Assembly (NCBI GenBank): GCA_963754085.1
Contig: CAVWFA010000009.1
Coordinates: 7,086-71,085, forward strand
Source: Candidatus Aminicenantes bacterium
GTDB lineage: Bacteria; Acidobacteriota; Aminicenantia; Aminicenantales; Saccharicenantaceae
Length of the DNA stretch: 64,000 nucleotides
Reading direction: 5' to 3'
Below are positions 20,145 through 37,005 of this stretch, one piece after another (positions within the stretch are counted from its first letter, which is position 1; each line of letters begins with the position of its first letter). The translations under genes and the position numbers were made by a program. The notes under the pieces are model-generated. The model ran no database searches and was not told where the DNA came from. It saw only the letters and a list, made by a program, of their open reading frames with translations.

Positions 20145-22502
20145 TTATTGCCTCATCATGATGGCCTTCAGCGCGGCCTCGTCATCCTTGATCATCTCGC
20201 CGCTCACATCGACCGTGACGCCGTGGAGCTTGCCGGTGAACTTGAACGGAGGGTCGTACTTGTCCCACACCGGCGAACCGCCGTCGGCGCCGCAGACGAA
20301 GCCCCCGCCCAGTCCGAGCGACAGGGGCATGGTGAGCGGGATGTCGACCTGCCCGACCAGCCGGCCGTCGATATAGAGCTGGCCGCGGCCCGGCGCGCCC
20401 TTGCCGCTCTTGACGTCGGGCTTGCCGGTCACCTCGAACTCGAACCGCAGCTTGTGGCGCCCCTCGGGAACGGGAACGTTCGATTCCGCGTGATAGAACT
20501 GGCTGCCCACGTAGTTGTAGACATAGTGGAGCTTGCCGTCCTGCACGTAGACGGCGAAGCCGCCTTGGACATCGCCGGCGGACAACAGGACTCCTTCGGC
20601 GCCCCCCTTGGGGATCTCGGCGTCCGCCGTGATGCTGTGGGGCCGGTTCAGCACGGTGGGGCAGGCGTTGATCGGGACCGCCTGCGTGCCGGGATAGTAG
20701 GTGTAGCTGTTGCGGGCGACGGCGATCTGCGGCCGGGGGTCGGCGAACCGCAGCGTGCCGCGCGAGTCGACCGGCAGGACCTTGTACTTGCCGGCCTCGA
20801 CGTACCAGGTCGCGATCATCTCGATCAGCTTGGCCCTGTTCTCGGAGGCGAGGTTGTGGTTCTCGGCCCAGTCCTTCTCGATGTGGTAGAGCTCCCAGCC
20901 TTTCGCGTCCAGCTCGGTCAGCTTGTCCTTGTCGATCGGCGCTCCGAAGAACAGGCCCGCTTCCGTGAAGGACGTCCCCGGCCACGGGCAGACGGCGCGC
21001 CAGCCGTCATGATAAATGGACCGGTGGCCCATCATCTCGAAGTACTGGGTGACGTGCTTGCTGGGCGCCTTGGCCTCGTCGAGGGCGTGGGCGAAGCTCA
21101 ACCCCTCGATGGGCGCCTGCGTGACGCCCTTGACGGCGGCCGGGGTTTCGAGGCCGAGCATCTCGAGCACCGAGGGGACCATGTCGATCGCATGGGCGTA
21201 CTGGGTGCGGACTTCGCCCTTCGCCTTGATGCCCTTGGGCCAATGGACGATGAACGGGTCGCTGATGCCGCCGCGGTAGGTCTCCCGCTTCCAGCGGCGG
21301 AACGGGGTGTTGCCCGCGAAGGTCCAGCCCCAGGCATAGTGGTTGAAGGTGTTCGGCCCGCCCAGCTGGTCGATCATGGCCAGGTTCTGCTTCAGGTCGT
21401 CGGGCACGTTGTTGAAGAACTTGTTCTCGTTGACCGATCCGTTCGGCCCGCCTTCCGAGCTGGCGCCGTTGTCGGAGATGAACATGATGATCGTGTTGTC
21501 CCATTCGCCGATCGACTTGAGGAATTCGAACAGGCGGCCGTAATGGTAGTCCGTGTGGCTCAGGAACCCGGCGAACACCTCCATCATCCGGGCATACAGC
21601 TTCCTCTCGTCGGCCGAGAGCTTGTTCCAGTCCTGCACGTCGGGATCGTGGCGCGACAGCTCGGCGTCGGGCGGGATGATCCCCAGCTCCTTCTGGCGCT
21701 TGAACGTCCGCTCGCGGTAGGCGTCCCAGCCGTCGTCGAACTGGCCCTTGTACTTGTCGGCCCACTCCTTGGGGACGTGGTGAGGGGCGTGCATCGCCCC
21801 GGGACAGAAATACATGAAAAAGGGCTTGTTCGGCGCGACCTGCTTGGAGTCGGCGATGAAGCTGATCGCTTTGTCGGTCAGGTCCTCGGTCAGGTGATAG
21901 CCTTCGTCCGGCGTCTTTTCGGGCTCGACGCTGTGGTTGTCGTACACCAGCTCCGGATAGTACTGGTGCGTGTCGCCGCCGAGGAATCCGTAGTAGCGCT
22001 CGAACCCGCGGCCCAGGGGCCAGCGATCGTACGGACCGGCCGCCGAGATCTGGTCCGCGGGGGTCAGATGCCACTTGCCGATCGCGAAGGTGTTGTAGCC
22101 GTGCTGGAGCAGGATCTCGGAGAGCATCCCGTTCTCGAACGGCATGTAGCCGTTGCCGCCGGGGTATCCGGTCGAGCCCTCGGTGATGCACGACATGGCG
22201 TTGGAGTGGTGGTTGCGCCCCGTCAGGATGCACGAGCGCGTCGGCGAGCACAGCGCGGTGGTGTGCATGTTGTTGAAGAGCAGGCCGTTCTTGGCCAGCG
22301 CGTCGATGTTCGGCGTCTTGATCGGGCTGCCGTAGCAGCCCATCTGGCCGAAGCCGGTGTCGTCCTGGACGATGAACAGGACGTTCGGCGCGCCCTCCTT
22401 GGCCCGCAGCGGCTGGGGCCAGGCCGGGCTGGACACATCAAAAGTCCTTCCGATCACGCCGTTGAAGGCGGCACCGGGCTTGTACTCTTTTAGAACGGCC
22501 AT
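20145..22502 (-). CDS. arylsulfatase (formylglycine-dependent, Cys type)
   Basis: 785 aa from the ATG preceded by AAGGAGGG. Motifs seen: PNVLFIVQDDTGFGQMGCYGS, TALCSPTRSCILTGRNHH (C-x-P-x-R) and HAPHHVPKEWADKYKG. Confidence 0.9.
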   Translation of the reverse strand: MAVLKEYKPGAAFNGVIGRTFDVSSPAWPQPLRAKEGAPNVLFIVQDDTGFGQMGCYGSPIKTPNIDALAKNGLLFNNMHTTALCSPTRSCILTGRNHHSNAMSCITEGSTGYPGGNGYMPFENGMLSEILLQHGYNTFAIGKWHLTPADQISAAGPYDRWPLGRGFERYYGFLGGDTHQYYPELVYDNHSVEPEKTPDEGYHLTEDLTDKAISFIADSKQVAPNKPFFMYFCPGAMHAPHHVPKEWADKYKGQFDDGWDAYRERTFKRQKELGIIPPDAELSRHDPDVQDWNKLSADERKLYARMMEVFAGFLSHTDYHYGRLFEFLKSIGEWDNTIIMFISDNGASSEGGPNGSVNENKFFNNVPDDLKQNLAMIDQLGGPNTFNHYAWGWTFAGNTPFRRWKRETYRGGISDPFIVHWPKGIKAKGEVRTQYAHAIDMVPSVLEMLGLETPAAVKGVTQAPIEGLSFAHALDEAKAPSKHVTQYFEMMGHRSIYHDGWRAVCPWPGTSFTEAGLFFGAPIDKDKLTELDAKGWELYHIEKDWAENHNLASENRAKLIEMIATWYVEAGKYKVLPVDSRGTLRFADPRPQIAVARNSYTYYPGTQAVPINACPTVLNRPHSITADAEIPKGGAEGVLLSAGDVQGGFAVYVQDGKLHYVYNYVGSQFYHAESNVPVPEGRHKLRFEFEVTGKPDVKSGKGAPGRGQLYIDGRLVGQVDIPLTMPLSLGLGGGFVCGADGGSPVWDKYDPPFKFTGKLHGVTVDVSGEMIKDDEAALKAIMMRQ

Positions 22503-22538
22503 GATTCCCTCCTTTATCAAACAAACCTACACGGGCTA

Positions 22539-22584
22539 TCTGTATCCTGAAGCAATGTGGCGCGTCAATGGGACCTTGGGCTAA
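22539..22584 (-). promoter_or_regulatory. candidate sigma70-type promoter with conserved upstream 16-mer (copy c)
   Basis: Minus strand reads TTAGCCCAAGGTCCCA-TTGACG-18 nt-TACAGA, about 35 nt upstream of the sulfatase ATG at 22502. Confidence 0.5.
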
Positions 22585-22606
22585 GGCGGCCGGCCGGCTC
22601 ACCCGC

Positions 22607-23355
22607 TCACAGCAGGATGATGAGGAGGGCCGTATAGAGGGCCCCGCCGCAAAGAAAGGCCAGGGGCCGCGCGTCGTTCTCTTTCGGCAGTTCCGAGACC
22701 ATGGCGTTCAGGATGATCCCTCCTGAGAGGAACCCCAGGAGGGCCGCCGCGAAGAACGGGCTGAATTCCACGAAAATCCCCACCGCCCATCCGGCCAGCG
22801 GGGCGAGGGCGAAAACATAACGGACCGTGCGATCGTACCAGGAACCGTATTCCTGCAAGAACGAATAGTCCAACGAGAGGAAGTGGAGCCCCAGGGCGGC
22901 GGCGTAGAGGGCGATCGGCGTCGCCCCTTCCTCGAAGCTCCGGACCGCCAGATATCCGGCCAGCCAGACATAGGCCAGGAAACCCGCGGCGTGGACCGCC
23001 CGGCGGAAACGGTCCTCTCCGCCGTGGGCGTCCCGGGATCGGCAGGCCGATGGGCCTTCGCGATCATCTGCTTGAGCGCGTAGAAGGCCATGAATCCGAC
23101 CAGGGCGGCCAAATAGACCCTCAAGGAGAAGACGGGCAGGGCCATCCGGGCTTCGTTATGGCCGAGGGCCTCTCTCGCGGCCTCGAGCTCGGGCAGAAGG
23201 TGGACGAAAACGTAAGCGATCGTCACCCCGGCTCCGAACGACAGGATCCTCCTCCGATGGCGGCGGATGGCCTCGGGGATCAGGACATGGCTGCCGAGAA
23301 GGAAGATGGCCGAGAACACGAGGGCTGCGGCCAGCGGCCCGATCTCGAACGGCAT
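22607..23355 (-). CDS. polytopic membrane protein, possibly a ZIP-like cation transporter; one frameshift
   Basis: Two ORF-track pieces (22708..23355 and 22607..22873) join through an alternative frame (AHGGEDRFRRAVHAAGFLAYVWLAGYL...LGLHFLSLDYSFLQEYG). The shift is near 23030-23045. Motifs FVHLLPELE and LNAMVSELPKE are the only functional hints. Confidence 0.4.
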
Positions 23356-23389
23356 GGGGGGCCTCCTTTGACGATTCCGTGTATCCGGG

Positions 23390-24319
23390 CTACCGGCCGA
23401 ACCACCGGTATTGGAATGCCAGGCCGAAGACGGTGAACTTTCCCCCGATGCGCGTGATCACCCCGGTCGAGCCGCTGAATTTCAGGGAATAGGCCCGCCC
23501 GATCGGGACGGAGAATGTGAAGCCGATCCGGGAGTTCTCCTGCCGGTCGTCTTTGACGACTCCGTCGATGGTCGTCTCGCCCCCGGCGTACAGGGTTCCG
23601 TCGGCGGCGAGCCAGAGTCCGGGACGGAAAGTGTAGCTCGCGTGGGCCTGGCCCGACCAGAGCGGGGTTTGGGCGCGCAGCTGCCCGCCGTAGAAATCCG
23701 GGTTGTCGGTGAAGAGCCAGACGGCCATGGCCACGTCCAGGGTCCATTTTCCCGTCGGGAACGAGAATCCGAGCTCCGGCTTGAAGGCCCAACGGTTGGC
23801 CCCGATATTGACCAGCTTGTCGGGATAGTACTGACCCACCGGCGCCACGACCACCAGGCTGGCGCCGAGCGAGGGGCCCGGCTTGCGCAGGGCGAATTCC
23901 CGCGGCGTGAGCGCGCGGCCGCCCATCAGGTTCACGGCGAGGCGCAGCCGGAGATCTCCGAAGCCCGATCGCGTGATCTCCGTGAAATCCTCGCCGACCA
24001 TCCCGCTCATCTTGCCGAAGGCATAGGGGATGAGCACGGCCAGGCTGGCCGTGCGCCCCGCCAGGGCAAAGGTCCCGGAGTAGCCCGGGACGAACATGCC
24101 GAGGTCGGCCGTGACATCGGTGACCGGCACTGAAGGGTCGAGCAGGACATCTCCATACGAGTAGGCCGTGCCCAGGACGAGGAAATTCGCTTTGATCGGC
24201 ACCGCCGAATAAGCCCGCGGCTCGAGGTCCTGGCCGAACATGGTCCCCGCCAGGCCCAGGAGCGCCAAGCTTAAGAGCACACGGCCCGCGCGATAGGAGA
24301 GGGTTCCGGACATGATCAT
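23390..24319 (-). CDS. outer-membrane beta-barrel, MetA-pathway-of-phenol-degradation-like (hydrophobic-compound channel family)
   Basis: Signal peptide, then QDLEPRAYSAVPIKANFLVLGTAYSYG..., alternating beta-strand pattern and C-terminal FQYRWFGR. Confidence 0.65.
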   Translation of the reverse strand: MIMSGTLSYRAGRVLLSLALLGLAGTMFGQDLEPRAYSAVPIKANFLVLGTAYSYGDVLLDPSVPVTDVTADLGMFVPGYSGTFALAGRTASLAVLIPYAFGKMSGMVGEDFTEITRSGFGDLRLRLAVNLMGGRALTPREFALRKPGPSLGASLVVVAPVGQYYPDKLVNIGANRWAFKPELGFSFPTGKWTLDVAMAVWLFTDNPDFYGGQLRAQTPLWSGQAHASYTFRPGLWLAADGTLYAGGETTIDGVVKDDRQENSRIGFTFSVPIGRAYSLKFSGSTGVITRIGGKFTVFGLAFQYRWFGR

Positions 24320-24323
24320 CTCC

Positions 24324-25088
24324 TTATCTCGATGCGGGCTTTTTCAGGTCGAAGAGGATCGAGAGGTACCAGCGGAACTTGATCTTCATCCGGACCATCT
24401 GGTTCCGGTAGGGCCCTTCCTTGCAGAACCAGATCCGGAGATTGCCCTTCTTCCTCCAAACGTCTTTGGGGGCCCGGTCCGGCCCGGCTGTCTTCTCGAT
24501 GGCGTAGAGGACGATCTCGTAAACCCGAGCCTTGAGCGGCGAGTAGGTCTCGAGATCCTCGACCTCCATGCGGAAGATCCGCGGGATCCCCTTGAGGATG
24601 AACGGGGTGTCGATGACTTCCCCGACCTTGATGTCGTGCTCCATCAGATACTCGAGCGGCGCGAGGATGCAGCCGTAGCTCCCCTCGACCCTCGTCTCCG
24701 GGCCGTCGTTGCGGACAACGACGGCGTGGTCCGGGAAGAAGGTCATCCGTTCGGCCTGGGTCTTCTTGTTGGTCTTCAGGAAACCCGAGGAGGAGCTCCC
24801 GACGCCCCGCCCTTCGGCCACCGCTTGGTCGTCCACGGAACCGTCGGACCGGAGCGGATAGGTCTTGAGGACCTTGAACTCGCCGCCGTAGTCCCTGTTC
24901 TTCTTGACCTGTTCGGCGTTGGTCCCTCCGGCCATGCGCAGCGTCTTTTCGAGACGGCCGTCCTTCTTCTGCAGCGTCGACTCGATGGTCATGGACCCGG
25001 CGTCACCCAGGTTGCCGAGGAAGAAGACGTGGGCGCTGATGCCGTACTGGCCGGCCTGCTGACTTTCCGTCGCCGGGACCGCGGACAC
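24324..25088 (-). CDS. hypothetical protein (DUF3108-like?), N-terminus uncertain
   Basis: ORF-track protein of 254 aa from a GTG start. Upstream in frame there is a signal-peptide-like stretch (CLAVAFLFAASGG) with no usable start codon, so the 5' end may also carry an indel. Confidence 0.35.
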   Translation of the reverse strand: MSAVPATESQQAGQYGISAHVFFLGNLGDAGSMTIESTLQKKDGRLEKTLRMAGGTNAEQVKKNRDYGGEFKVLKTYPLRSDGSVDDQAVAEGRGVGSSSSGFLKTNKKTQAERMTFFPDHAVVVRNDGPETRVEGSYGCILAPLEYLMEHDIKVGEVIDTPFILKGIPRIFRMEVEDLETYSPLKARVYEIVLYAIEKTAGPDRAPKDVWRKKGNLRIWFCKEGPYRNQMVRMKIKFRWYLSILFDLKKPASR

Positions 25089-25224
25089 CGGGGCGGGCGC
25101 GGAAGCCCGTTCCTGAAGCTCCCGGCCGCCGGAGGCGGCGAAGAGGAAGGCGACGGCGAGACACGAGCCCCGTCACAACGGGCCGTTGGCGCCGATCGCG
25201 GACCCGACGGCCCCCTCCCGGATG

Positions 25225-26787
25225 TCACGCGCCTCCCTTGGGGGCGATCTTGTAGTTCGGATCCAGATAATGCTCTTTCCAGATGGGGTCCATGAGGGCG
25301 GCCACGGCCTCGTTGTAGGCGATCAAGCCCTTCTGGTACTCCGGATCGGCCATGGCGATGCCGGCGTTCTCGTCGAGCGGCTTGGGCTTGAACTCGTCGA
25401 GGATGGGCCTGAATTCCTTGAAATGGTCGCGGATCGGACAGGGCATCATCCAGTTCTTGATCTTCGCGCTTTCCAGGTAGTTCTTGCTGTAGCCGTAGTC
25501 GACCTGCCACTCCCTGATCTTCTTGAAGAACGGGGTCTGCCAGACGTCGATGAGGTTCTTGCCCTCGGCATAGACCTGGTTGATGTTGACCGGCGAATAG
25601 GGCATGAAGACGCAGGGCACGACGTCCCCGTTCCAGACGACCGCAAAGTACCCGCCGGACCGGCCGGCGCCGATGCAGCCCAGGGCGGTCGTACCGCCGT
25701 TCCAGAAATCGGAGACGTAGAGGCGGCGCTCCTTGATGAGCTCCCAGGTCCGCTTCCACATCCACAGCCGCTGCTGGGGCGTGGGCAGGTAGTCCAGGGT
25801 GATGGCCCGCCCGATGGGCATGTACTGGAACACCCAGGCGAAGTGGGCGCCCATCTCGTTGAAGTAGAAGTCGATGACCTTGTCCGAGAGGATCTCCTCG
25901 ACATTGCTCTTGGTCGCCGTGATGGACAGGCCGAACAGGACCTTCTCCCGGCGGAGCCGGCCCATGGCCTCGACGATGCGGTCGAAGACGCCGTCGCCGC
26001 GACGGGCGTCGGTGCTCTCCTTCAGGCCCTCGACCGAGATGCACGGCATGACGTTCCCCAGCCGGGACATCCGGCGGGCGGTCGCATCGTCGATGAGCGT
26101 CCCGTTCGTATACATCATGAAGAAGACGTCGGGATAGCGCTCGGCCAGGTCCAGGACCCCGTAGCCCTGGTCCCGGTAGGCCAACGGCTCGCCGCCGCTG
26201 AAGGCGACGAAGCGGCTGCCCCAGAGCGTCCGGATGTCGCTGACGAGGTGGTCCAGGACGGGCCAGGACAGCTTCTCGTTGATCGCGGTCGAGTCGGCGT
26301 AGCAGCCCTTGCAGTTGAGATTGCAGAACTTGGTCGGGCTGACGAGAATGACCTCCGGCGGCCGGACGCCGTGTTCGGCGATGAACTTGGCCCGGGCCGT
26401 GGGATCGCCCTTCTTGAGGATGATGTCATGGGCCAGGTTCTTGATGACCCGGCGCATCGAGGCCTTGCTGAGGCTGTTGCGGGCCAGGGCCCGGTCGAGG
26501 GTCGCGAAGATGGCCAGGGTGAGCTCCATCCGGTCCTCGACGATCCGGGGCGGGCGCCGGCCCTCTTCGGCCAGGCGGATGCTGCCCCGGCGCAGGTTCT
26601 TCTCCATCGTCCGGAGCAGGGCCTTGCGGACGAAGCCGATCCTGGCCAGGACCGGGGCCGCCCAGGCGAAGATCTTCAGACTGGCCGAGAGGAAGATCTT
26701 CCGAAGGTTCAGCTTCTTCGTCTGGTCCGGCATGAGAGTGCCGGGATCGGCCTGGGGCCGATCTGAAGTGTTCTCTTTATTGTCCAT
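25225..26787 (-). CDS. radical SAM enzyme with ~150-aa N-terminal extension and a C-terminal auxiliary-cluster (twitch/SPASM-like) region
   Basis: 520 aa. Motifs seen: CX3CX2C motif FCNLNCKGCY, a GGEPL glycine-rich SAM motif (AFSGGEPLAY), and later Cys residues in MPCISVEG, GCIGAGRSGGYFAVVWNGDVVPCVF and MPCPIRDH. RBS ACGGAGG. Confidence 0.8.
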   Translation of the reverse strand: MDNKENTSDRPQADPGTLMPDQTKKLNLRKIFLSASLKIFAWAAPVLARIGFVRKALLRTMEKNLRRGSIRLAEEGRRPPRIVEDRMELTLAIFATLDRALARNSLSKASMRRVIKNLAHDIILKKGDPTARAKFIAEHGVRPPEVILVSPTKFCNLNCKGCYADSTAINEKLSWPVLDHLVSDIRTLWGSRFVAFSGGEPLAYRDQGYGVLDLAERYPDVFFMMYTNGTLIDDATARRMSRLGNVMPCISVEGLKESTDARRGDGVFDRIVEAMGRLRREKVLFGLSITATKSNVEEILSDKVIDFYFNEMGAHFAWVFQYMPIGRAITLDYLPTPQQRLWMWKRTWELIKERRLYVSDFWNGGTTALGCIGAGRSGGYFAVVWNGDVVPCVFMPYSPVNINQVYAEGKNLIDVWQTPFFKKIREWQVDYGYSKNYLESAKIKNWMMPCPIRDHFKEFRPILDEFKPKPLDENAGIAMADPEYQKGLIAYNEAVAALMDPIWKEHYLDPNYKIAPKGGA

Positions 26788-26927
26788 GATCGAGCCTCCG
26801 TTAGAAGCGTCTGGACGGGTCGGGCGCTATGGATCGAACCACCTACGGCCCCCCGCCGGAGGTAACTAGCGAACCCATCCACTTTCTTCTATTCTAATTA
26901 CACCTTTCCGGGTCATAAGTCCAGATA

Positions 26928-26973
26928 TTAGTAGCAGGTGCCCCCGGGTAGGGTCAATGGGACCAAAGTCCAA
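26928..26973 (-). promoter_or_regulatory. candidate sigma70-type promoter with conserved upstream 16-mer (copy d)
   Basis: Minus strand reads TTGGACTTTGGTCCCA-TTGACC-18 nt-TACTAA. This implies a ~135-nt 5' UTR ahead of the radical SAM ATG. Confidence 0.55.
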
Positions 26974-27034
26974 GGCCCCATCGTGCGGAAGAGGTCCGGC
27001 GGCGCTGCGGCGCCCCGGGGAGGTTCCGTTGGCC

Positions 27035-27706
27035 TCAGAAGCGGAAGAACAGGCCCGTCTTGAACTCCCACTGGGTCATCGTGTTGCGCATCGAGGCGGT
27101 CTGGGAGCCGCCCTCCCAATCGACCAGGACTTCGTCGATGTTGTTGATGTAGGTCGTGACGAAATTCCCCTGGGCCCGGAACCCGAACTGGCCCTTGATC
27201 GGGACGTCGAGACCCAGGCCGAGGCCCCAGGAGAACCGGTTGAAGCTGGAGTTGTTCGTCTGCGGATTGAGACCCGTCATGCCCACGGCCAGCAGGAAGA
27301 AGGGCTTGACCTGGCCCATCTTGTATCCGGTGGACAGGAGGAGGTTCGCGTGCAGCTGGTCCTCGGTGGCCCCGAACAGCAGGTCATTCACGGCGGGGTC
27401 GGTTTCGGTGGCGTCGGCCAAGCCGAAGATGTCGGGCGTGCTGCGATTCCAAGCCACTTCAACCGCAAGGATGTCCGAGATCCTGTAGCCAAGGGCCAAG
27501 CCGTAGGAGACGCCGGAGCCGAACTTGATGCTGGTATAGGGCTGCTCTTCGCTATTGACGTCGAAATTGCCGCTGCCGCGGACGCCGATGGTCGGCATGA
27601 CCCAGAACTTCTTGGGGATTTCCGTCTGGGGGGTCTCCGCCGCGACCGCGATCGCATTCAGGCCGAGCCCGAGAAGAAGAGCCGCGATAAAGATCTGTTT
27701 TTTCAT
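27035..27706 (-). CDS. small outer-membrane beta-barrel protein (OMP_b-brl/OmpW-like size)
   Basis: Starts at MKKQIFIAALLLGLGLNAIAVAA (signal peptide, GGAGGAA RBS). Alternating strands and a terminal aromatic ...GLFFRF. Confidence 0.7.
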   Translation of the reverse strand: MKKQIFIAALLLGLGLNAIAVAAETPQTEIPKKFWVMPTIGVRGSGNFDVNSEEQPYTSIKFGSGVSYGLALGYRISDILAVEVAWNRSTPDIFGLADATETDPAVNDLLFGATEDQLHANLLLSTGYKMGQVKPFFLLAVGMTGLNPQTNNSSFNRFSWGLGLGLDVPIKGQFGFRAQGNFVTTYINNIDEVLVDWEGGSQTASMRNTMTQWEFKTGLFFRF

Positions 27707-27782
27707 ATCTATTCCTCCACCTTGATCTCGCATTCTATTAGACGGAATCCGGCCGGATTTCTTTCACCGGTCCTCCATCATA

Positions 27783-30700
27783 TCACCGCGCCCTCTGACG
27801 GGCAAGCGGCGGGCCGCCCCTCCGGGGCCGTTCCGGGGACCCGGCCGGACCATCCGGCCGGCTCTTCTTGCGGTCGGCGTATTGGCGGACCTGGTAGACG
27901 AAGGCCTCGAGCCGGGTCCGCTCCGAGGCCAGCTCGGACCCGGCGTAGATGAACGTCGGGATGGGGATATTCGAGTAGTCGGTCCGGACGGAGGCCGAAA
28001 GGACCGCGGAGGCCGCGCCGATCATGCAGTTGAAGCAGACGGCGTTGATGACGCCGTCCGCGCCGCGGCGGGCGAAATCGACGATCTTGGCCATATTGAG
28101 GAAGAGGAACCGGTTGGCGTCGATCCCCAGGTAGGGGGTCGTGGACTTGACGATGTCGGAGTAGGCCGGGTCCTTGGCGAAGGGGACGGCCCGGCCCAGG
28201 CGGCGGCGGACCTTGGCTTTCTCCAGTTCCTTGCGCAGGTACAGGAGGGCCAGGACGGACGACTGGCCGTACTTGCGCCCGACGAGCTGGGTCCGCAGGC
28301 CCTTGCCGAGATTGAAATCCACTTCGTCGATGAAGAACGACGGCGGCAGGACCTCGCAGCCGAGCGCTTCCAGCTTGAGGAAGAGGTCGTGATTGGCCGC
28401 CGGATTGATGCGGGTGAAGAGGTCCCCCGCCACGCCGACGACCGGGCGGCGCTCCCGCTTCACGGCGATCGACCTGAGCCTCTCCGCGCAGCGACCGAGG
28501 GCGGGGCCGAGGTCCCGGGCCGCGAGCCCGGCTTCGACGTCCTTGATGTTGGCGGCGTGGGCTTCGTCCGTCGCTCCCTTCCGGACCTCGTAGGGCCGGA
28601 GCGAGCACAGGGCCTGGACGAGGAGGTCGATGGCCACCAGGCCCTGATAGAGGGCGAGTCATGCCTTTGAGGGTCAGGATCCGGTTGAGCTGGTCGCCGA
28701 CCGGGGCGAACACGTCGATATCGGCGATCCCCAAGTCCTCCGCCAGGTAGGCCAGGGCCTTGTCGTACTGGGCCAGAACGCAGGTGTACTTGGAGCCGGG
28801 GAAGAAAAAGACCTCGTTCCCCCGCCGCGCCGACAGGGCCAGCTTGGCGAAGTCTCCGGCGATGATGGAATAGGCATGGCACTCTTTTCCCGAGCTGTGC
28901 TTCTCGCCCAAGGCCACGGTCGCGGCATCGGTCAGGGGCAGGACTTCGGCTTCGACGCCCGCGGCCTTCAAGGCGCCGGAGAAGGCGTAGGCATGGTCGG
29001 CGAAATAGGGCAGGACGAAGCGGCGCGTCCGGAAGGACCCGACGTCCTTCGGACGGAGCGGGGCGGGCGGCGGGGACGGCTCGGTCCGCCGGCCGCCCTG
29101 GCGGGACTCGCGGACCTCGTCCAGGAACGCCTCGATCCTCGTGATCAGCCCGGCCTCGGCCCGGTGCTCGTCGAACTCGAGGACCAGGTGAGGCTTCCCG
29201 GCCAGGATCCGCTCGATGTGCCTCAGATTGAAGGAGTCCAGGCCGCAGCCGAAATTGGTCAGGACGACCGGTTCGATCCCCTCTTGCCCGGCGGTCCACA
29301 GCGCGGCCCGCAGAGCCTGCCGGTTGTATCGCCAGTGCGGGGCCCCGGGCCATTCGAGTCCCTCGATCCCGTCCAGCGGCAGGAAATCGACGGGCAGGGC
29401 GGTGACCCCGAGCTTGGCCAGGTGACGGCCCAGATTGAGGTTCATGAACGGATCGTGGACAGTGTAGGGACGGCCGATGACGGCCCAGACAAGGCCGCCG
29501 TCCTCCCGGGAGCGGGCGATCGCCTCCCGCCCGAGGGCTTGAAGCCGGGCCCGGAAATCCGCTTGAGCCCGGACCGCGGCCTCATAGGCCTCCCCCATCG
29601 CATCATCCGTCTGCTCCAGGACGTCCCGGACCGCAGCCATGGACCTCAGGAAATCCTCCCGCGTGCCGTTGAAGGCCACGAACGGCGCGAGGATGTCCGC
29701 CGAGGTCGCGGCCCGGGCCATGAAGGGGAAGCTCTCCGTGTAGGGACAGTACGATGCGGAATCGCGGGCCTCCTTGCGGAGGTCGAGGACGGCCGGAAAG
29801 AAGATCAGGTCCACGGCCTTGTCCTTGAACCATTCGATGTGGCCGAAGGCGGCCTTGACGGGCACGCAGGTCTCGGCCGCGAGCTTCCGCAGGCCCTTCT
29901 CGAGGATCTCAGGACTGTTCTCCGGCGAGACGACGACCTCGGCCCCCAGCCGGTTGAAGAAGACCGACCAGAAGGGCAGGTCTTCGCAGAGGAGCGAAGC
30001 CCGGGGGAGGCCGATCCGCCGGGACGGCCGCTCCGGATTCCGGATGTAGCTGTCCAAACGTTCAGCGCGCTCTCTGAAGAGGTCGTAGCGCGCTTTCGGG
30101 CCGGAGCGCTTCACGGTTTCTCCTCCGGCCGGCTTGAGGCCCTGGCCGGCCGTGTACCGCTCGCAGGTATCGCCGAAGAAGACCGCGCCGTCTTCGAAGG
30201 AGATCCGGTTGACCTGGCAGCAGTTCGTGCACTCATGGCAGGTAAAGCTCGTGACGGCGTACTCCTGAGCGAGCCGGCGGCCGACGGCGGCCGTGTCTGG
30301 CGAGGTCTTCCCGGCTTCGCGGACCCGCTCGCGGGCCATAAGCGCGGCGCCGATGGCGCCCGAGATCCGGTTGTAGGGATGGACGCGGACCTCCCGGCCC
30401 GTCTCGAGGGCCAGGGCCCTCACGACCGACGGATTGGAGGCGACGCCGCCCTGGAAGACGACCGTTTCGCCGACGGGACGTCCGGCCACGACCTTCTCGA
30501 GATAGTTCCTGGCGATCGAAAAAGCCAGCCCGGCCGAGATGTCGGCCGCCGCGACGCCGCGGCCGAGCGAGTCGGCCAGCTCCGATTCCATGAAGACCGT
30601 GCACCGGCTGCCCAGGTCGGCCGGCGTCGCGGAGCCGGCGGCCAGGCGCGAGAACTCGTCCTCGATCCGGATGCCCAGGATCTCCGCCTGTTCCTCGAGG

Positions 30701-32040
30701 AAGGAGCCCGTCCCGGCGGCGCAGATTTTGTTCATGGCGAAGTCCACGATCTTGCCGCGGCGGGCGCTGATGTACTTGGAATCCTGGCCGCCGATCTCGA
30801 AGACCGTGTCCACGTCCGGGACATAGTGGGCCGCGCTCCGGAGCTGGCAGGTGATCTCGTTGTGGACGACGTCGGCCTGGAGGAGCGCGCCGGCGAGATG
30901 GCGGCCGCTGCCCGTCGTGCCGATGCCGAGGAGATCGAAGCCGCCGGGGCATTTCCGCAGGAGCTCCCGATAGCCTTCTTTCAAGACCTCGAGCGGCCGT
31001 CCCCGGGTCGGAAGGTAGACGCCCGCCCGGACTCGACCCTCCGCGTCGACCAGGACGAGGTTGGTGCTCACTGAGCCGATATCGACTCCGAGCGTGGCCT
31101 CGAGGAACTCCCCGGGCCGGGGCGAGGGTTCCTCGGACTCGCGGACTTCGAGCTCGCCCAACGCCGCGGCCCGGACTTTCGGGCGGAGCTTCCGGGGTTT
31201 AAGGAACCGGAGGAGGTCCCCGGGCTCGCCGATCTCGAGGCCGCCCGGGCCTTTGGCAGCGCCGGCCGCGGCCCCCAGCGCGCCGAGCATGTGGGGCAGC
31301 TCGGCCAGCAGGCACTCCCCTTCGCCGAGACGCAGGACTTCGCGGAAGGCGTTGATCAGGCCTTCGTTCCGGAACCCGCCTCCCGCGAGGAGCACGGGCG
31401 CAAGGGACTCGCGTCCCTTGAGGACGGTGGCCACGAAGTTCCTGGCCAGGGCGAGGCAAAGGCCGTAGGCGATCTCCTCGACGGGCGTGCCCTTCTGCTG
31501 GAGATGGATCATGTCCGTCTTGGCGAAGACGCTGCAGCGGCCGGCGATGGCCGCCCCGCGCTTGGCCGTCGCGGCCAGCCGGGCGAATTCCTCGATCGGC
31601 ATCTTCAAACGGGCGGCCTGCTGCTCGAGGAAGCTCCCCGAACCGGCGGCGCACACGTCGTTGAGGGCGAAATCGAGGATCCCGGGCTCGGCCGAGAGGT
31701 CCCCCGCCCGGTCGAACAGCACCCAGCGGGACGTTTGGGCGCCGATCTCGATGACGGACCGGGTCTCGGGATACGCATGAGCTGCGCCGAGAGCCAGCGA
31801 GACGACTTCGTTCGGCTGAAAGACCTCCGGAGGGGCTTCGACGATCTCCCTCCCGGCCCCCGTGATGCCGAGCGCCCGGATCCTGCGGCCGGACACCTCG
31901 AAGATATCCCCCACGACGGCCCGGAACGCGTCCGCGGAGCGGCCGCGGTTCGGGCGCTCCCAGGATCCCAGGAGAGCGAGAGCTTCGTCGAGCAGGACGG
32001 CTTTGACCGCCGACGAGCCGATATCGATGCCGAGGAACAT
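27783..32040 (-). CDS. PlsA/PlsR(Ger)-type fusion: two BcrAD/BadFG (HgdC-like) ATPase domains plus a 2-hydroxyacyl-CoA-dehydratase-like (DUF2229/HgdB-like) region; one frameshift
   Basis: Motifs seen: MFLGIDIGSSAVKAVLL and TLGVDIGSVSTNLVLV (two actin-fold ATPase starts), CAAGSGSFLEQQA and CAAGTGSFLEEQA (activase cluster-bridging Cys motif), Cys cluster TSFTCHECTNCCQV, and a C-terminal DGVINAVCFNCMIGAAS. The frame changes near 28655-28662 (LTLKGMT|LALYQGLVAIDLLVQAL), joining ORFs 27778..32040 and 27783..28637 into ~1419 aa. Confidence 0.75.
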
Positions 32041-32792
32041 CAGAAGAACACGTGCAGGATCGCGTTCAGGGCGTAGGTGTTCGTGACCGAGGTCTTCGTG
32101 TCGTTTTGATAGGTGAGGTTCGTCTCGATCGCGAAGAACGTTTTCCAGGCCACCGTGGCCCCTCCGATCAACCGGACGCGGTTGACGGTGTCGTAGCGGG
32201 TGTCATAATAGGGCTCGACGTTCAGATAGGGGACGATCGACACGCGCCCGGCCAGGAACTCCCTCTCGATCATCAGGCGATAGCGGAAGCGGGCGGAGAA
32301 ATCACGGTCGACGCCCAGCCAGCGGAGATCGGTCCGCAGCCGATGGGACACGAGGACCTTGCCCTTCAGCGGGGTCCTCATGTGCAGCTCGACCAGGGCC
32401 GTGTCCTCGCTGTACGCCTCGCCCTGGTCGTCGAGGCTCTTCCCTCCGAGATACCCGGCGCGAAAGAGGAAGCGGCGCATGTCCCTGGCCCGGTCCTCGT
32501 CCATCATCCGTCTCTTGAGCACGTTCTTGAACTTCCCGAAAGCGACATCCGCCTGCAGGATCAGGCTTCCTTCGCGGTACTTGGTGTCGACGTTCTGGGA
32601 TAGGGCTATGAACGACGAAAGGCGCCAGGCCGGGCTAAGGCGCAACCAGATGTCCGTCTCGGGCCAGAATTCCGTCGACGAGGTCGAGGCCTCCTGGGCG
32701 AAGGCGGCTCCGGCCGCTCCGGTCCAGGCCATGAGGGCTAGGCAAACGAGGCGGAGCAGGCCTCTCACGGTCGATCTTCGGTCATTCCTCAT
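32040..32792 (-). CDS. outer-membrane beta-barrel protein, DUF2490-like
   Basis: Signal peptide LLRLVCLALMAWTGAAGAAFA and terminal ...AILHVFF. The stop overlaps the downstream ATG (TGATG). The start is set at the Met at 32792 because the predicted -10 box lies downstream of the ORF-track start. Confidence 0.55.
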   Translation of the reverse strand: MRNDRRSTVRGLLRLVCLALMAWTGAAGAAFAQEASTSSTEFWPETDIWLRLSPAWRLSSFIALSQNVDTKYREGSLILQADVAFGKFKNVLKRRMMDEDRARDMRRFLFRAGYLGGKSLDDQGEAYSEDTALVELHMRTPLKGKVLVSHRLRTDLRWLGVDRDFSARFRYRLMIEREFLAGRVSIVPYLNVEPYYDTRYDTVNRVRLIGGATVAWKTFFAIETNLTYQNDTKTSVTNTYALNAILHVFF

Positions 32793-32812
32793 CGCTCGGA
32801 TCACTCCCCCGT

Positions 32813-32857
32813 CATTTATCAAAAGTGCCGGCCGGGGTCAATAGTACCATGGCCTCT
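32813..32857 (-). promoter_or_regulatory. candidate sigma70-type promoter with a diverged copy of the upstream 16-mer (copy f)
   Basis: Minus strand reads AGAGGCCATGGTACTA-TTGACC-17 nt-TAAATG. Confidence 0.45.
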
Positions 32858-32889
32858 GAAGGGATCGTCCGGGCGAGGGCCGGCCCCGG

Positions 32890-33948
32890 TCATTGCAGCG
32901 ACCAGCTGATCCCGAAGGTCAAGCTGTAATCGTTCTTGGTCGTCGTCTCCCCGCCCGGCTTGCTGTCGTACGAGTCGAGGAACCCGAGCGAGACATAGAA
33001 CCGGCGGAAGACCTCGTAGCGGATCGACGTCTGGAACTTGAGACGGACCCGACCTTTCTCGGTCAGGCTCGGGTAGGCAAAGAAGCTGGAGGTGATGCTC
33101 ATGTTTGGGAACCAATACCGGAAGGCGTCGAAGCTCGCCCCCAGCACGGCTTCCATGTTCGTCTGGGACTCCGTCGCGTCGATGTAGTTCTCCCGGGTCA
33201 CGTCGATGGCCGCCACCGCGCTCAGGCTGTTGCGGTTGGTCCGGATGAAGTACCTCCCGATGCCCCCGCCGGCCAGCACCCGCAGGGCCAGGTTCAGCTC
33301 GGTGTTCTGCTCGAGCTGAACGAAAGCCGCCGCAGTCCACCGCTTCTTGAAAAGCCTCATGACGTCGAACGCCAGGAGGTTCTTCTTGATGTCCTGGACG
33401 TTCTCCTGGCTGGTGAAATAGGAGCTGGCGTCGCTCTTGACCTCCCATTTCTGAGACAGGTAGCTGAGGTTGGCGGCCAGGTTCAGCTGGGTGTACTTCT
33501 GGGCCTTTTGCAGGGAGAACCCGAGATCCAGGTAGCCTTGGAACCGCTGGACCGGGCGTTTCCCGAACCGGACGATGCCGACGATGTCGACGAGCTTGAG
33601 GGTGACCGGACCGGAATCCGTGAGGACCATGACCTCGCCGTCCTCGGGGGTCTCGTGGAGGGCACCGGTGTAGCGCAGGCCGTTCTTGTCCTCGAGGATG
33701 AACGGCCACTGGCTGGAGATCCGCTTGATCCGTTCCCACTCGACGGACAGGGTCCCCATGTCGTCCGTTTTGTACGTGAGGAGGCCGTCTTTAAGGTTCC
33801 GGATCTCGCCCGTGACCCGGTCGCTGTTCGCGAGGACGATGATGTCGGTCTTTTCGGCGGCGGCGGCCTGCGGCCCGAGCGCGAAAAGAAAAGCAGCGAG
33901 GAGCAGGGCGGAGGGCCCCCACTCGGATCGGCTGCTGCAGGCTGTCAT
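32890..33948 (-). CDS. outer-membrane protein, DUF481 (YdiY-like) family
   Basis: Signal peptide, then an N-terminal DRVTGEIRNLKDGLLTYKTDDMGTLSVEWERIKRISS repeat typical of DUF481. Barrel region and terminal FGISWSLQ. Confidence 0.65.
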   Translation of the reverse strand: MTACSSRSEWGPSALLLAAFLFALGPQAAAAEKTDIIVLANSDRVTGEIRNLKDGLLTYKTDDMGTLSVEWERIKRISSQWPFILEDKNGLRYTGALHETPEDGEVMVLTDSGPVTLKLVDIVGIVRFGKRPVQRFQGYLDLGFSLQKAQKYTQLNLAANLSYLSQKWEVKSDASSYFTSQENVQDIKKNLLAFDVMRLFKKRWTAAAFVQLEQNTELNLALRVLAGGGIGRYFIRTNRNSLSAVAAIDVTRENYIDATESQTNMEAVLGASFDAFRYWFPNMSITSSFFAYPSLTEKGRVRLKFQTSIRYEVFRRFYVSLGFLDSYDSKPGGETTTKNDYSLTFGISWSLQ

Positions 33949-34019: not shown

Positions 34020-34421
34020 TCACAGCGACGCGTTGATATCCGGCGAGACATAGGTGCCGCCCTGGCTCACTTCGCGGATGGCCGGGATCAGATCGATCAC
34101 CGCTCTTCGCTTCAAGACGAATCCTTCGACTCCGGACGCCATCACCTCGTCGACCACGGACCGTTCGTCGTGAAGGCTCAGGATGATGACCTTGATCTTG
34201 GGATAGCCCTTCTTGATCTCGCGGCCGATGTTCGTTTTCGCGGAGATGGGGAAGGAGAGGTCCGCCAAAACCAGATCGGGGGAGAAATTCTCCAGGACAT
34301 GAAAGAGGGAGATCTCGTCGCCGACCATCAGGACCGATTCGACCTCGTCTTCCAGAAGGCGACGGATCCCGCACAGCGCCGTTGGATTCTTATCGACAAG
34401 TATGATCCGCCCTTGTCCCAT
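34020..34421 (-). CDS. receiver-only response regulator of NarL type (no HTH)
   Basis: ILVDKNPT...DLVLADLSFP...KVIILSLHDE...GFVLKRRAVIDLIPAIREVSQGGTYVSP. The protein ends where NarL/LuxR regulators continue into the HTH. Confidence 0.8.
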   Translation of the reverse strand: MGQGRIILVDKNPTALCGIRRLLEDEVESVLMVGDEISLFHVLENFSPDLVLADLSFPISAKTNIGREIKKGYPKIKVIILSLHDERSVVDEVMASGVEGFVLKRRAVIDLIPAIREVSQGGTYVSPDINASL

Positions 34422-34556: not shown

Positions 34557-35198
34557 TCACAAGGAGATGATGCCGTGTCTTACGGCGTACTGGACCAGCT
34601 CGGCGCTGGTCTTGATATTGAGCTTTTCCATCATCCGGTACTTGTGGAATTCCACGGTCCGCGGCGATATATTCAGGATGGACGCGATCTCCTTGCCGGA
34701 CCGCCCTTCGGCCAGGAGCTGGAGGATCTCCCGCTCCCGGGGGCTCGTTTTCCGGAGAAGCTCCTTTTCCGGCGAGCCTCCCTCCCGATAAGTGCGGAGA
34801 AGGTCTCCTGCGACCAGGGGGGTGATATAGGTCCGTCCCTTCATCGCCTCATGGATCGCGGTGACGAGCTCGGAGGGCGCCGCGTGTTTCAGGACGAAGC
34901 CCGAAGCACCGGCCTCGAACGCGTCCGCCGCATAGGTCGCGTCCGGGTGCATGGTCAGGAACACGATCTTGACCCGCTTGTTCGCTTTTTTGATCTGCCG
35001 GGCCGCTTCGATGCCGTTGAGCTGGGGCATCGAGATGTCGGCCACGATCACGTCGGGACGGAGCTTGGCGGCCTGCTCGACGAGGACCCGCCCGTTCTCC
35101 GCGGTCCCGACGACCTCGAACTCGTCCCCCAGGAGCCCTTTCAGGCCCTCGAGCACGATGCGGTGATCATCGGCCAGCAGGACGCTCGTCTTACGCAT
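34557..35198 (-). CDS. NarL/LuxR-family response regulator (REC + HTH_LuxR)
   Basis: VLLADDHRIVLEGLK...DVIVADISMPQLNG...VKIVFLTMH, and a C-terminal SPREREILQLLAEGRSGKEIASILNISPRTVEFHKYRMMEKL. Confidence 0.9.
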   Translation of the reverse strand: MRKTSVLLADDHRIVLEGLKGLLGDEFEVVGTAENGRVLVEQAAKLRPDVIVADISMPQLNGIEAARQIKKANKRVKIVFLTMHPDATYAADAFEAGASGFVLKHAAPSELVTAIHEAMKGRTYITPLVAGDLLRTYREGGSPEKELLRKTSPREREILQLLAEGRSGKEIASILNISPRTVEFHKYRMMEKLNIKTSAELVQYAVRHGIISL

Positions 35199-37005
35199 TC
35201 TCCCTCCCCGCCAACGGCGCCCTCAGGGTGATCACCGTTCCCCGTTCGGGCCCGGACTGAATGGCCAGGTCGCCGTGGATCAGCCGGGCCCGTTCGCGCA
35301 TGCTCAGGAATCCCAGCCCCGGCCGGTCCCGGGCCTCCGCCCCGTCGAATCCGATGCCGTCATCCTCGATGGACAGGAGAACGTCGCGATCCAGGCCCCT
35401 CAGGGAAACGGACGCATGCTCCGCGCAGGCGTGTTTGGAGATGTTCCGCAACCCCTCCTGGACGATCCGGTAAAGATGAAGCGACACGTCTTGCGGGATG
35501 ACCCGGGGCATGTTCTCGTGGCGGAAGACGACCTCGAGGCCTTCCCGCTTCGAGACGCCGGCGCATTCCGATTCGACCGCCTTGATCAGCCCCAGATCGT
35601 CCAGGATCGAGGGGTGAAGCTGGCGCGACAGGCTATGGACATCCTGGGAGAGGCCGACGATCCCCTTCTTGATCTCTCGCAGTTCCTCTTTGACGGGACC
35701 CGCCGGATCCACCCACCGTTTCTCGAGCGCGCCGACCTCGATGGCCAGAACCGCCAGGCGCTGCGCCAGATCGTCATGAAGCTCCCGGGCGATGCGGCTC
35801 CGCTCTTCCTCGTGAGCGTCGATCAGCCGTCCGGCGAGCCGCCGGAGATCGTGCTCATTCTGTCTCAGGATCCTCTCGCTTTCCCGTGAGGCCTCCTCGG
35901 CTCCCTTCCGGGCCATGGCATTGACCAGGATATCCCCCAGCAAGCGCAGCCGCGGGATGAATCCGTTCGGCCAGGTCCGCTCCCTCCGGGTCGCCACGAG
36001 GGCACAGGATCCCTGCGTCATCCCGCCGCTCACCAGCGGGATCGAAAGAAACGATTTCATGCCCAGGCCCCGGCAAACCCGGCGCTCGCACTCCGCTTCG
36101 GGCGGCAGATCCTCCAGGCGGTTCACGACCACCGGTTTCCCCTGGATCAATTGCTCCAGATACCAAGGCATTTGGTCCTTGGATATGGATCCCGGGCCGG
36201 GGCCGGTCCCTGCGGCATGATGGTCAAAAGCGAGCGTCAGTCGGGTCCTATCCTCGGAGAACAATCCGATGCTGCACCGGTCTGCGTCGAAGAACTCGGC
36301 CATGCTGCGGATCCCTTTTTGGATCTCGCGGCCGATCTGGTCGAACGCTACGTACACGAAGCCGGCCGAAAGATCGGAGATCAGCTTCTCGAATCTGAGA
36401 CGTTCCTGGATCTCGAGCCGGGCCTGCTTACGCTCCAGCGCGTTGCTGAACACCTGGGCGATCAGCTGGAAGCCTTTCAGGACCGACTCCGGCCAGGCCC
36501 TCTCTTCCCGGATGACGGCGAATGACATCCCGCCAAAGACCGGCCCGCCTCCCACCGAAAAGGGAAACACCACCGTGGACTTGGTTCCGAAGAGGGTGTA
36601 GCTTTCCCGATCGCGGCCGGCTTCCTGCGGGAGCTCGGAGAGCTTCTGGACCGCGACCATCTGCCCGGACATGATCCTCTTTTCCGTCCACGGGAAGAGA
36701 TCGCTCGCATCGACCCCCTTGGGAACTGGCGGACCTCCGCCTGGCTGATTAAGATGTTTCAGGCGCAGCGTCCTGGGTTCCAGGTCGGAAAGGAGCCAGA
36801 GGGCGGAGCGATCGAGATCCAGGAATTCGCACACTTGGCGCTGGGCGTCGACGATTTCGGATTCGATCCGGTCCGGCGGCAGGTGGACGAAGCGCGCCGA
36901 TGTTTCGGCCAGGAACGTCTCGAATCGGAGCCGTTCCTCCAATTCGGCCCGCAGGGCGTCGAGGGACTCTGGGGCCATTTCCGGATCGGTAGGGACCCTC
37001 TTCAT
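35191..37005 (-). CDS. sensor histidine kinase, GAF-GAF-HisKA_3-HATPase (NarX/DegS type)
   Basis: HEEERSRIARELHDDLAQRLA (HisKA_3 H-box), LYRIVQEGLRNISKHA, DDGIGF. The N-terminal [27 protein letters not shown] is the same GAF signature as the other two sensors. An 8-nt overlap with the regulator gene. Confidence 0.85.
   Translation of the reverse strand: MKRVPTDPEMAPESLDALRAELEERLRFETFLAETSARFVHLPPDRIESEIVDAQRQVCEFLDLDRSALWLLSDLEPRTLRLKHLNQPGGGPPVPKGVDASDLFPWTEKRIMSGQMVAVQKLSELPQEAGRDRESYTLFGTKSTVVFPFSVGGGPVFGGMSFAVIREERAWPESVLKGFQLIAQVFSNALERKQARLEIQERLRFEKLISDLSAGFVYVAFDQIGREIQKGIRSMAEFFDADRCSIGLFSEDRTRLTLAFDHHAAGTGPGPGSISKDQMPWYLEQLIQGKPVVVNRLEDLPPEAECERRVCRGLGMKSFLSIPLVSGGMTQGSCALVATRRERTWPNGFIPRLRLLGDILVNAMARKGAEEASRESERILRQNEHDLRRLAGRLIDAHEEERSRIARELHDDLAQRLAVLAIEVGALEKRWVDPAGPVKEELREIKKGIVGLSQDVHSLSRQLHPSILDDLGLIKAVESECAGVSKREGLEVVFRHENMPRVIPQDVSLHLYRIVQEGLRNISKHACAEHASVSLRGLDRDVLLSIEDDGIGFDGAEARDRPGLGFLSMRERARLIHGDLAIQSGPERGTVITLRAPLAGRENA

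Follow-up and report, generated by a model that had tools for sequence, protein, structure and literature searches.

Known routes to ether-linked and membrane-spanning lipids

The ether-linked, membrane-spanning lipids of bacteria have a published candidate pathway composed of two enzymes, namely Ger (glycerol ester reductase) and the radical S-adenosylmethionine (SAM) enzyme Mss (PMC13159169, PMC13274423), and genomes, those of uncultured Acidobacteria among them, are already screened for the joint presence of mss and ger as a marker (PMC13159169). The locus described here appears to unite both genes. It lies in a stretch of 64,000 nucleotides from a Candidatus Aminicenantes bacterium (Acidobacteriota; GenBank assembly GCA_963754085.1, contig CAVWFA010000009.1, positions 7,086 to 71,085), hereafter called the window, and its core is formed by a 4.26-kb gene, whose product is assigned below to the PlsA/PlsR-Ger family, and by the gene of a radical SAM enzyme of 520 amino acids (aa). 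[quoted passage not shown]

PlsA and Ger are defined by two PF01869 activase domains and one PF09989 domain in a single chain (the BBD architecture), the C-terminal part being variable (PMC13159169; preprint 10.64898/2026.06.23.733905). For instance, the Ger of T. maritima (Tmari_0479/AGL49404), described as a "modified PlsA", shows the arrangement BBDHDDH, with small PF06050 segments in a C-terminal part that varies among producers; another Ger is that of D. alkenivorans (SHJ90043), and homologues have been reported in uncultured Acidobacteriota (PMC13159169). PlsA/PlsR corresponds to CPE1194/1195 in C. perfringens and to one gene in E. faecalis, L. cremoris, B. longum and Listeria. The validated single-gene enzymes are encoded by genes of 4248-4920 bp, that is, about 1415-1639 aa (PMC12838417). 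Listeria makes plasmalogens anaerobically, and the role of WP_014600632.1 from Listeria monocytogenes as a PlsA/PlsR orthologue comes from the same work (PMC9702350).

Mss is represented by T. maritima Tmari_0825/AGL49750 and T. ethanolicus WP_129545148.1, and WP_040330614.1 is the Mss homologue listed for C. ihumii in Supplementary Table 3 of PMC13274423. Tes, or GDGT-MAS (MJ0619; PDB 7TOL/7TOM), is also a radical SAM enzyme acting on lipid tails.

The PlsA/PlsR-Ger-type protein

A preliminary description of this DNA, prepared from its letters alone, had proposed that the large protein is a fusion of the PlsA/PlsR-Ger type, and this is borne out. BcrAD_BadFG (PF01869) matches the open reading frame (ORF) in two stretches (E 2.9e-75) and PF09989 covers residues 675-886, so the BBD architecture is present in one chain. 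The protein can be aligned collinearly with the Listeria orthologue along 89% of its length (27.5% identity over 1304 columns, query residues 4-1262, E 2.5e-119). Fourteen cysteines are invariant in 12/12 aligned sequences, Listeria included: C130, C169, C440, C480, C601, C604, C608, C626, C725, C765, C932, C1054, C1087 and C1338. Two of them lie in each ATPase module (in CAAG and in RC(S/T)VF), four constitute the motif C601-x2-C604-x3-C608...C626, three are found in the DUF2229 half and three in the C-terminal half. The cysteines of CAAG and RC(S/T)VF occupy the bridging-cluster positions of HgdC. The whole arrangement is that to be expected of a fused activase pair followed by two dehydratase-type modules.

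The details of the preliminary description require some correction. The motif CAAGxGSFLExQA does occur twice (residues 130 and 440), while GIDIGS, also said to be duplicated, is present only once, the second copy being GVDIGS. The frameshift assumed in the gene is real, and the repaired protein has 1418 aa instead of about 1419, a length within that spanned by the validated PlsA enzymes encoded by one gene. Homologues with an intact frame, 1390-1436 aa long, are plentiful, with identities of up to 94% (the closest, P0001, has 1419 aa), and those with names come from metagenome-assembled genomes of Acidobacteriota, Terriglobales and Aminicenantes.

The likeness to the HgdABC/HadBCI dehydratases and class I benzoyl-coenzyme A (CoA) reductases resides in the fold of the activase ATPase (1hux and 4eht, E 1e-32) and in the three-cysteine sites of the two dehydratase-like modules. 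However, in this protein everything is fused in one chain, the activase is duplicated and no genes of CoA metabolism lie nearby. NCBIfam assigns it a generic activase domain only, the equivalogs for benzoyl-CoA reductase and others being far under the cut-off (143 vs 578 bits), and its relatives in the PDB are stand-alone activases only. Hence Pfam, NCBIfam, the Listeria alignment and the cysteines all distinguish it from the ordinary 2-hydroxyacyl-CoA dehydratases and benzoyl-CoA reductases, whose subunits are separate.

On these sequence grounds the large protein is assigned to the PlsA/PlsR-Ger ester-reductase family. It shares with Ger a single chain of about 1400 aa, the BBD order and an anaerobic-looking host. 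It differs from the known PlsA/PlsR enzymes in belonging to another phylum and in being clustered with an Mss-like gene and with genes of outer-membrane proteins; besides, a two-component system stands beside it, whereas a TetR-like regulator is found upstream of pls in E. faecalis. The sequence does not discriminate between a vinyl ether (PlsA) and an alkyl ether (Ger) as product.

The radical SAM enzyme

The 520-aa protein contains a radical SAM core (PF04055, E 7.9e-20) with one CxxxCxxC motif, CNLNCKGC (C155/C159/C162). The four later cysteines already pointed out are present at positions 249, 371, 392 and 450, just three of them (371, 392 and 450) being invariant in the family. None of the NCBIfam equivalogs was approached. 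A profile built from 27 family members found its best matches in anSME and SkfB; the match to GDGT-MAS (7tol) had an E of 0.013 over 84 residues of the core. Similarly, in Foldseek searches with an AlphaFold model (predicted local distance difference test, pLDDT, of 84), the nearest structures were anSME (PDB 4K36-4K39), SkfB and SuiB (E ~1e-12; template modelling, TM, score of 0.6 on the target), with which a twitch-like auxiliary cluster region is shared, and GDGT-MAS appeared at rank 39 (TM 0.35). The profile and the fold, anSME/SkfB-like and only weakly GDGT-MAS-like, therefore indicate an enzyme of the twitch/SPASM class, not a Tes.

Two candidate identities were discarded. Tes/GDGT-MAS is of similar length and weakly similar in the core, but besides the profile and fold values given above it has two CxxxCxxC motifs, not one. 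An anSME identity is contradicted by TIGR03942 (39.8 bits vs a cut-off of 349) and by the presence of three auxiliary cysteines, not the full SPASM set; unlike anSME, SkfB and SuiB, the enzyme also carries additional N- and C-terminal helical domains, and no peptide or sulfatase partner exists across the family.

At E<=1e-30 the family profile retrieved 704 clusters among 1.84 billion representatives, and C. ihumii WP_040330614.1 sits in one of them. By BLASTP, the window enzyme is 32% identical to this protein, a listed homologue and not a validated enzyme, over 414 aa (E 7e-71). The auxiliary cysteines C371/C392/C450 align with C334/C352/C393, which are invariant in the Clostridial group of Mss homologues. 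A profile of this Clostridial group, in turn, retrieved sequences of Clostridium and of metagenomes only. The family was found in Aminicenantes, Anaerolineae, Armatimonadota, Latescibacterota, Omnitrophota, Spirochaetota (Spirochaetales), Chloroflexota, Desulfobacterales and DPANN (Woesearchaeota and Nanoarchaeota), a range that agrees with published Mss surveys; like the known Mss enzymes, its members have the radical SAM core and are found in anaerobes. These similarities place the 520-aa protein in the Mss family only indirectly, through the listed C. ihumii homologue. It departs from the known Mss enzymes in its length, about 100 aa forming an additional helical domain at the N-terminus, and in the conserved partner gene, coding for a 254-aa exported protein, that the Acidobacteriota clade possesses.

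Of the two enzymes for membrane-spanning lipids suggested earlier, Tes or Mss, the second is thus retained, and a lipid-tail-coupling family is supported instead of a known unrelated one such as anSME. For this reason ether or membrane-spanning lipids are the best reading of the locus.

Mss-like genes have recurrent neighbours across phyla (L007-L086; L090:15110-16021). Those with a lipid connotation code for a phasin-like protein of ~114 aa (15 loci), a patatin-like phospholipase (14), DegV (9), a UbiB/ABC1 kinase (8) and UppS (6), and others for TetR (9) and GT2 (7); the patatin, DegV and UbiB neighbours speak in favour of the Mss reading. In C. ihumii, too, a patatin-like phospholipase gene is found, 4 kb away from that of the Mss homologue. 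In the Anaerolineae loci L017, L020, L037, L040, L047 and L051 (~6900-9600), including that of the cultured Longilinea arvoryzae KOME-1, a MalT/LuxR-type regulator of ~894 aa is encoded directly upstream of the Mss-like gene.

Mss-family genes are also carried by enterobacterial plasmids, namely E. albertii pEA5_1 (NZ_CP117576.1; L094:2254-3633) and a plasmid of K. pneumoniae (NZ_CP077819.1, 86828-87976), one of which is a conjugative IncF plasmid. Their products share 33-35% identity with the Mss homologue of C. ihumii. The plasmid search returned stand-alone homologues only, from E. albertii, K. pneumoniae and Methanosphaera, and in the E. albertii plasmid no Ger-like gene was found near the Mss-family gene.

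Linkage of the two genes in relatives

The Ger-like and Mss-like genes are linked in five related contigs if that of the window is counted; in the other four the large protein is 77-85% identical to that of the window. L003 (85% identity), L087 (84%) and L088 (78%) keep the window order: DUF481, DUF2254 and/or DUF2490, the large gene, OMP_b-brl, the radical SAM gene, the orthologue of the 254-aa gene, MetA and ZIP; the L088 contig ends within the MetA gene, before the position of ZIP. Two-component regulators are encoded upstream in L087 and L088, and the distance from the large gene to the radical SAM gene is 1 kb in the window and in these three relatives. In the fourth locus, L092 (77%), the upstream context is different; DUF2490 precedes the large gene and the radical SAM gene follows 69 nt on, with no barrel gene in between.

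Proposed activity of the two enzymes

It is probable, in our opinion, that the core of the locus consists of two oxygen-sensitive lipid-remodelling enzymes, a Ger/PlsA-type ester reductase and an Mss-type tail coupler. From their families, their conserved ligand residues and their adjacency in relatives, the following substrates and products can be proposed. The two fused HgdC-like ATPase modules would share one bridging [4Fe-4S] cluster (C130/C169 and C440/C480), spend ATP and drive an electron of low potential into two HgdA/B-like modules with three invariant cysteines each; in the latter, the acyl ester at sn-1 of a membrane glycerolipid would be converted by reduction into an ether, either vinyl or alkyl. 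The CxxxCxxC cluster of the Mss-family enzyme would cleave SAM, and the radical so formed would remove a hydrogen at the terminus of an acyl chain. Aided by one auxiliary cluster (C371/C392/C450), this enzyme could couple two lipid tails into a membrane-spanning diacid. Acting jointly, both enzymes may produce ether-linked, membrane-spanning (brGDGT-like) lipids, and the two-component system encoded upstream may control them. The idea of an envelope-lipid locus is therefore maintained as the best reading, although not as that of an uncharacterised system, the pathway of Ger and Mss being already published.

Different observations weigh against this reading. The identities to the references are low (27-32%), and the references compared, the Listeria PlsA orthologue and the listed C. 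ihumii Mss homologue, are not enzymes of proven activity. The extra N-terminal helical domain characterizes a 520-aa subfamily whose function is putative. No PF06050 (HGD-D) match was obtained at E<=5 in the C-terminal half of the large protein, where only fragments of PF09989 appear, in contrast to T. maritima Ger, and the likeness to Ger is one of architecture, not of direct sequence comparison. The linkage, whose lack of conservation the preliminary description had named as a refutation, is kept in close relatives and absent elsewhere, so that this objection applies by half. For instance, no radical SAM gene lies by the large gene in P0007 (80% identity), P0016 (71%) or P0024 (69%), and a BcrAD/DUF2229 gene was found near the radical SAM gene in 0/80 species-level loci anchored on it (54 with at least 2 kb upstream and 66 with at least 2 kb downstream), in none of four more metagenomic loci (L004-L006 and L089) and, as a ger gene, not near the C. 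ihumii mss locus. The adjacency could therefore be synteny inherited within a shallow clade. Finally, indels affect the large gene and the ZIP-like gene of the window, and probably the beginning of the 254-aa gene as well, and the locus may be inactive in this genome.

Frameshifts and the integrity of the locus

Past residue 1126 the large ORF continues as Arg/Pro-rich nonsense, and the conserved sequence resumes in another frame. This is due to a single additional base near 28657 with respect to L003, L087 and L088; the homologues P0001-P0012 are intact. The ZIP-like gene is also broken, into ORFs of 215 aa and 88 aa, compared to 271 aa in L003. In total, window-specific single-base indels were located at ~28657, 23025-23061, 25160/25210 and ~41063, three relatives being intact. 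The last of them concerns a DcaP-type porin and a glutaminase, which in the window (39943-42258, plus strand) are fused as a 771-aa ORF and in L003 are two overlapping genes.

Errors of assembly may account for the frameshifts, since indels of a single base occur in several unrelated genes of the window. The contrary explanation, real mutations in a decaying locus, would be compatible with any functional reading and is possible, though less likely than not. It agrees with the restriction of the indels to the window, inside conserved coding sequence that is intact in relatives. On the other hand, the codon-position GC bias is fully kept, no further damage is seen, and scattered 1-nt indels over unrelated genes typify uncorrected long-read assemblies. 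The insertion near 28657 lies outside any long homopolymer and would fit either cause.

Alternative explanations

The shallow distribution of the linkage has to be weighed further. Both enzymes could be true homologues of Ger and Mss acting on different, unrelated substrates, and their adjacency with each other and with the barrel genes could be neutral synteny of a shallow lineage. In accordance with this, the large gene has another conserved context in P0007, P0016 and P0024 (ferritin, a small ORF, TauE, the large gene and peptidases), the radical SAM gene stands alone or with the 254-aa protein only in 84 other loci, and Ger and Mss are apart in T. maritima (Tmari_0479 and Tmari_0825) and in C. 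ihumii. However, L092 maintains the pair adjacent in spite of its changed upstream context and missing barrel, and the characterised members of both families have lipid substrates only; this explanation is considered unlikely.

A second alternative is an anaerobic module for the catabolism of hydrophobic substrates, in which the MetA/FadL-like channel imports the compound and the radical enzyme of the benzoyl-CoA reductase/2-hydroxyacyl-CoA dehydratase type attacks it together with the radical SAM enzyme. Although a Phenol_MetA_deg channel is present and the domain matches of the large protein are of that type, the equivalogs fall as far short as stated above, the fusion is collinear with PlsA orthologues in full length, no CoA ligase, thiolase or beta-oxidation genes were found in the cluster, and the MetA gene is not beside the enzymes outside the shallow clade. 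This proposal of the preliminary description finds no support and is very improbable. Least probable of all is that the radical SAM enzyme matures the two downstream sulfatases: its nearest solved structures are anSME (E 3e-12) and sulfatases trail the cluster in the window, L003 and L087, but the TIGR03942 score and the incomplete SPASM set speak against it, L003 and L087 own a separate radical SAM/SPASM gene of 400-427 aa beside the sulfatases, and the family exists in 80 loci without sulfatases.

Outer-membrane barrels and the 254-aa partner

The DUF481 barrel upstream, the OMP_b-brl barrel downstream and the MetA-like channel of the preliminary description are all confirmed by Pfam. The DUF481, DUF2490, OMP_b-brl and Phenol_MetA_deg proteins (4/4) score above the gathering threshold and have signal-like N-termini, and those with DUF2490 and OMP_b-brl end in aromatic C-termini. 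The overlap TGATG lies exactly at 32038-32042, base 32040 belonging both to the stop (TGA) of the DUF2490 gene and to the start (ATG) of the large gene.

As a conserved trait, translational coupling between barrel and enzyme does not hold. The overlap is confined to the window; in L088 there is a gap of 89 nt, the L092 orthologue does not overlap either, and in L003 and L087 it is the stop of a DUF2254 membrane-protein gene that overlaps the start of the large gene. The slot upstream of the large gene (window 32040-32885; L003:4996-6252; L088:5353-7405) is variable, with DUF2490 only (window and L092), DUF2254 only (L003 and L087) or both (L088), and the nucleotide alignment of the window with L003 breaks exactly across it. 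Therefore, the overlap resembles ordinary operon compaction after one gene of this variable pair was lost. The OMP_b-brl barrel is present in L003, L087 and L088 and missing in L092. The barrels accompany the enzymes in the shallow clade only. The functional link with the outer membrane that had been suggested finds no support, and all four barrels, like the ZIP-like protein and DUF2254, are neighbours specific to the lineage. The membrane protein announced at the end of the cluster exists; it is ZIP-like and frameshifted.

The 254-aa exported protein is the sole partner that travels with the radical SAM enzyme beyond the shallow clade. Its orthologues follow the radical SAM gene in L003, L004, L007, L009, L015, L087, L088 and L089, overlapping its stop by 4 nt in L087, L089 and L003. 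The earlier likening to DUF3108 is weak; Pfam gives no such match for the window protein, and 2/7 orthologues match, the best (L089) with 23 bits vs a cut-off of 26. The N-terminus of the window gene is probably disrupted or miscalled, and a single-sequence structure model of the protein reached a pLDDT of 35. A Peptidase_M14 gene (947-988 aa) lies convergently just downstream of the large gene, or of the pair of radical SAM and 254-aa genes, in L001, L002, L089, L004 and the P0007 contig.

It is conceivable, though unlikely, that the barrels, the 254-aa partner and the two-component system form with Ger and Mss one regulated envelope-remodelling unit. In such a unit, low oxygen or acid would be the cue for making the ether-linked, membrane-spanning lipids, which proteins of the periplasm and outer membrane dedicated to this task would handle or accommodate.

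Organization of the locus and its host

The host genome has 65% GC. A run of genes on the minus strand extends from the kinase gene through two sulfatases, in the transcription order kinase, LuxR-type regulator, single-domain regulator, DUF481, DUF2490, 4.26-kb gene, OMP_b-brl, radical SAM, 254-aa ORF, Phenol_MetA_deg, ZIP-like and two sulfatases (Table 1). All eight genes of the preliminary description are where it had placed them, on this strand. The OMP_b-brl and radical SAM genes are separated by 247 bp, in which a promoter/terminator scan found no consensus above the background level, and the separate promotion of the second unit proposed in the preliminary description is conjectural; an Rfam search of the window gave no match.

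Table 1. Position of the genes and protein modules of the locus in the window
Feature	Position	Strand	Observations
GAF/HisKA_3 histidine kinase	35191..37005	-	Pfam; first gene of the run; L088 orthologue 78% identical, same position
LuxR/GerE-type response regulator	34557..35198	-	Pfam; syntenic L088 orthologue 81% identical
Single-domain response regulator	34020..34421	-	Pfam; syntenic in L088, 71% identical (tblastn); Response_reg gene at the same position in L087 (Pfam)
DUF481 outer-membrane barrel	32890..33948	-	PF04338, E 1.4e-21; signal-like N-terminus; syntenic in L003, L087, L088
DUF2490 outer-membrane barrel	32040..32822	-	PF10677, 33.2 bits vs 29.8 cut-off; signal peptide; C-terminal ...LHVFF
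Large gene, assigned to the PlsA/PlsR-Ger family	27783..32040	-	1418 aa once the extra base near 28657 is removed
HgdC/BcrAD-type ATPase module 1	31267..32034	-	GIDIGS; C130 in CAAGSGSFLEQQA; C169 in RCSVF
HgdC/BcrAD-type ATPase module 2	30334..31095	-	GVDIGS; C440; C480; E 8.9e-33 to HgdC structure 1hux
Four-cysteine motif C601/C604/C608/C626	30163..30240	-	Invariant in 12/12 aligned sequences including Listeria
DUF2229 (HgdB-like) module	29383..30018	-	PF09989, E 8.5e-53; invariant C725, C765; invariant C932 just beyond the module
C-terminal PlsR-equivalent dehydratase-like module	27786..29073	-	Invariant C1054, C1087, C1338; interrupted by the frameshift at ~28657
1-nt insertion site in the large gene	28656..28662	-	blastn vs L003, L087, L088: one extra base in the window
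Small OMP_b-brl outer-membrane barrel between the enzyme genes	27035..27733	-	PF13505, 34.4 bits vs 28.7; signal peptide; C-terminal FFRF
Radical SAM enzyme, 520 aa, assigned to the Mss family	25225..26787	-	Radical_SAM and SPASM (Pfam); cluster Cys 155/159/162 at 26302-26325; auxiliary Cys 371, 392, 450
254-aa exported partner of the radical SAM enzyme, weakly DUF3108-like	24324..25088	-	Trails the radical SAM gene in relatives
Phenol_MetA_deg-type outer-membrane channel	23390..24319	-	PF13557, E 4.9e-23; syntenic in L003, L087
ZIP-like inner-membrane protein, frameshifted	22607..23355	-	Pfam match within 22708-23355
Two sulfatases	17770-22520	-	Directly downstream of the cluster

The window also encodes a PFL-like glycyl radical enzyme, sulfatases, a fucosidase and a rhamnosidase, and the host looks like an anaerobic degrader of polysaccharides and sulfated glycans, its anaerobic appearance being due to the glycyl radical enzyme. 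The latter (808 aa; 841-3267, minus strand) adjoins a sigma-54 activator (4181-6697). In L003 (15768-16970) and L087 (17786-19069) an anSME-type radical SAM/SPASM gene is situated between the ZIP-like gene and the sulfatase. The same slot in the window (22521-22606) is only an 87-nt gap, so the sulfatase pair is devoid of a neighbouring maturase there.

Meaning of the locus

The locus is a physically clustered instance of the known pairing of Ger and Mss in an anaerobic member of the Acidobacteriota, with a 520-aa putative Mss subfamily and its conserved partner. The pairing itself was known already; the new element is the physical clustering, together with genes of outer-membrane proteins, and in the literature searched no description of ger-mss adjacency was found. 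This adjacency provides independent genomic support for one shared pathway, and the locus bears on the question of which bacteria make brGDGTs. As a compact and apparently regulated cluster, it offers a concrete cassette for expression tests, in which the 254-aa partner of the Mss-like enzyme is a candidate accessory factor. If the barrels, the partner and the two-component system did act with both enzymes as one regulated unit, they would represent the first case in a diderm of accessory machinery for tetraether-type lipids of bacteria.

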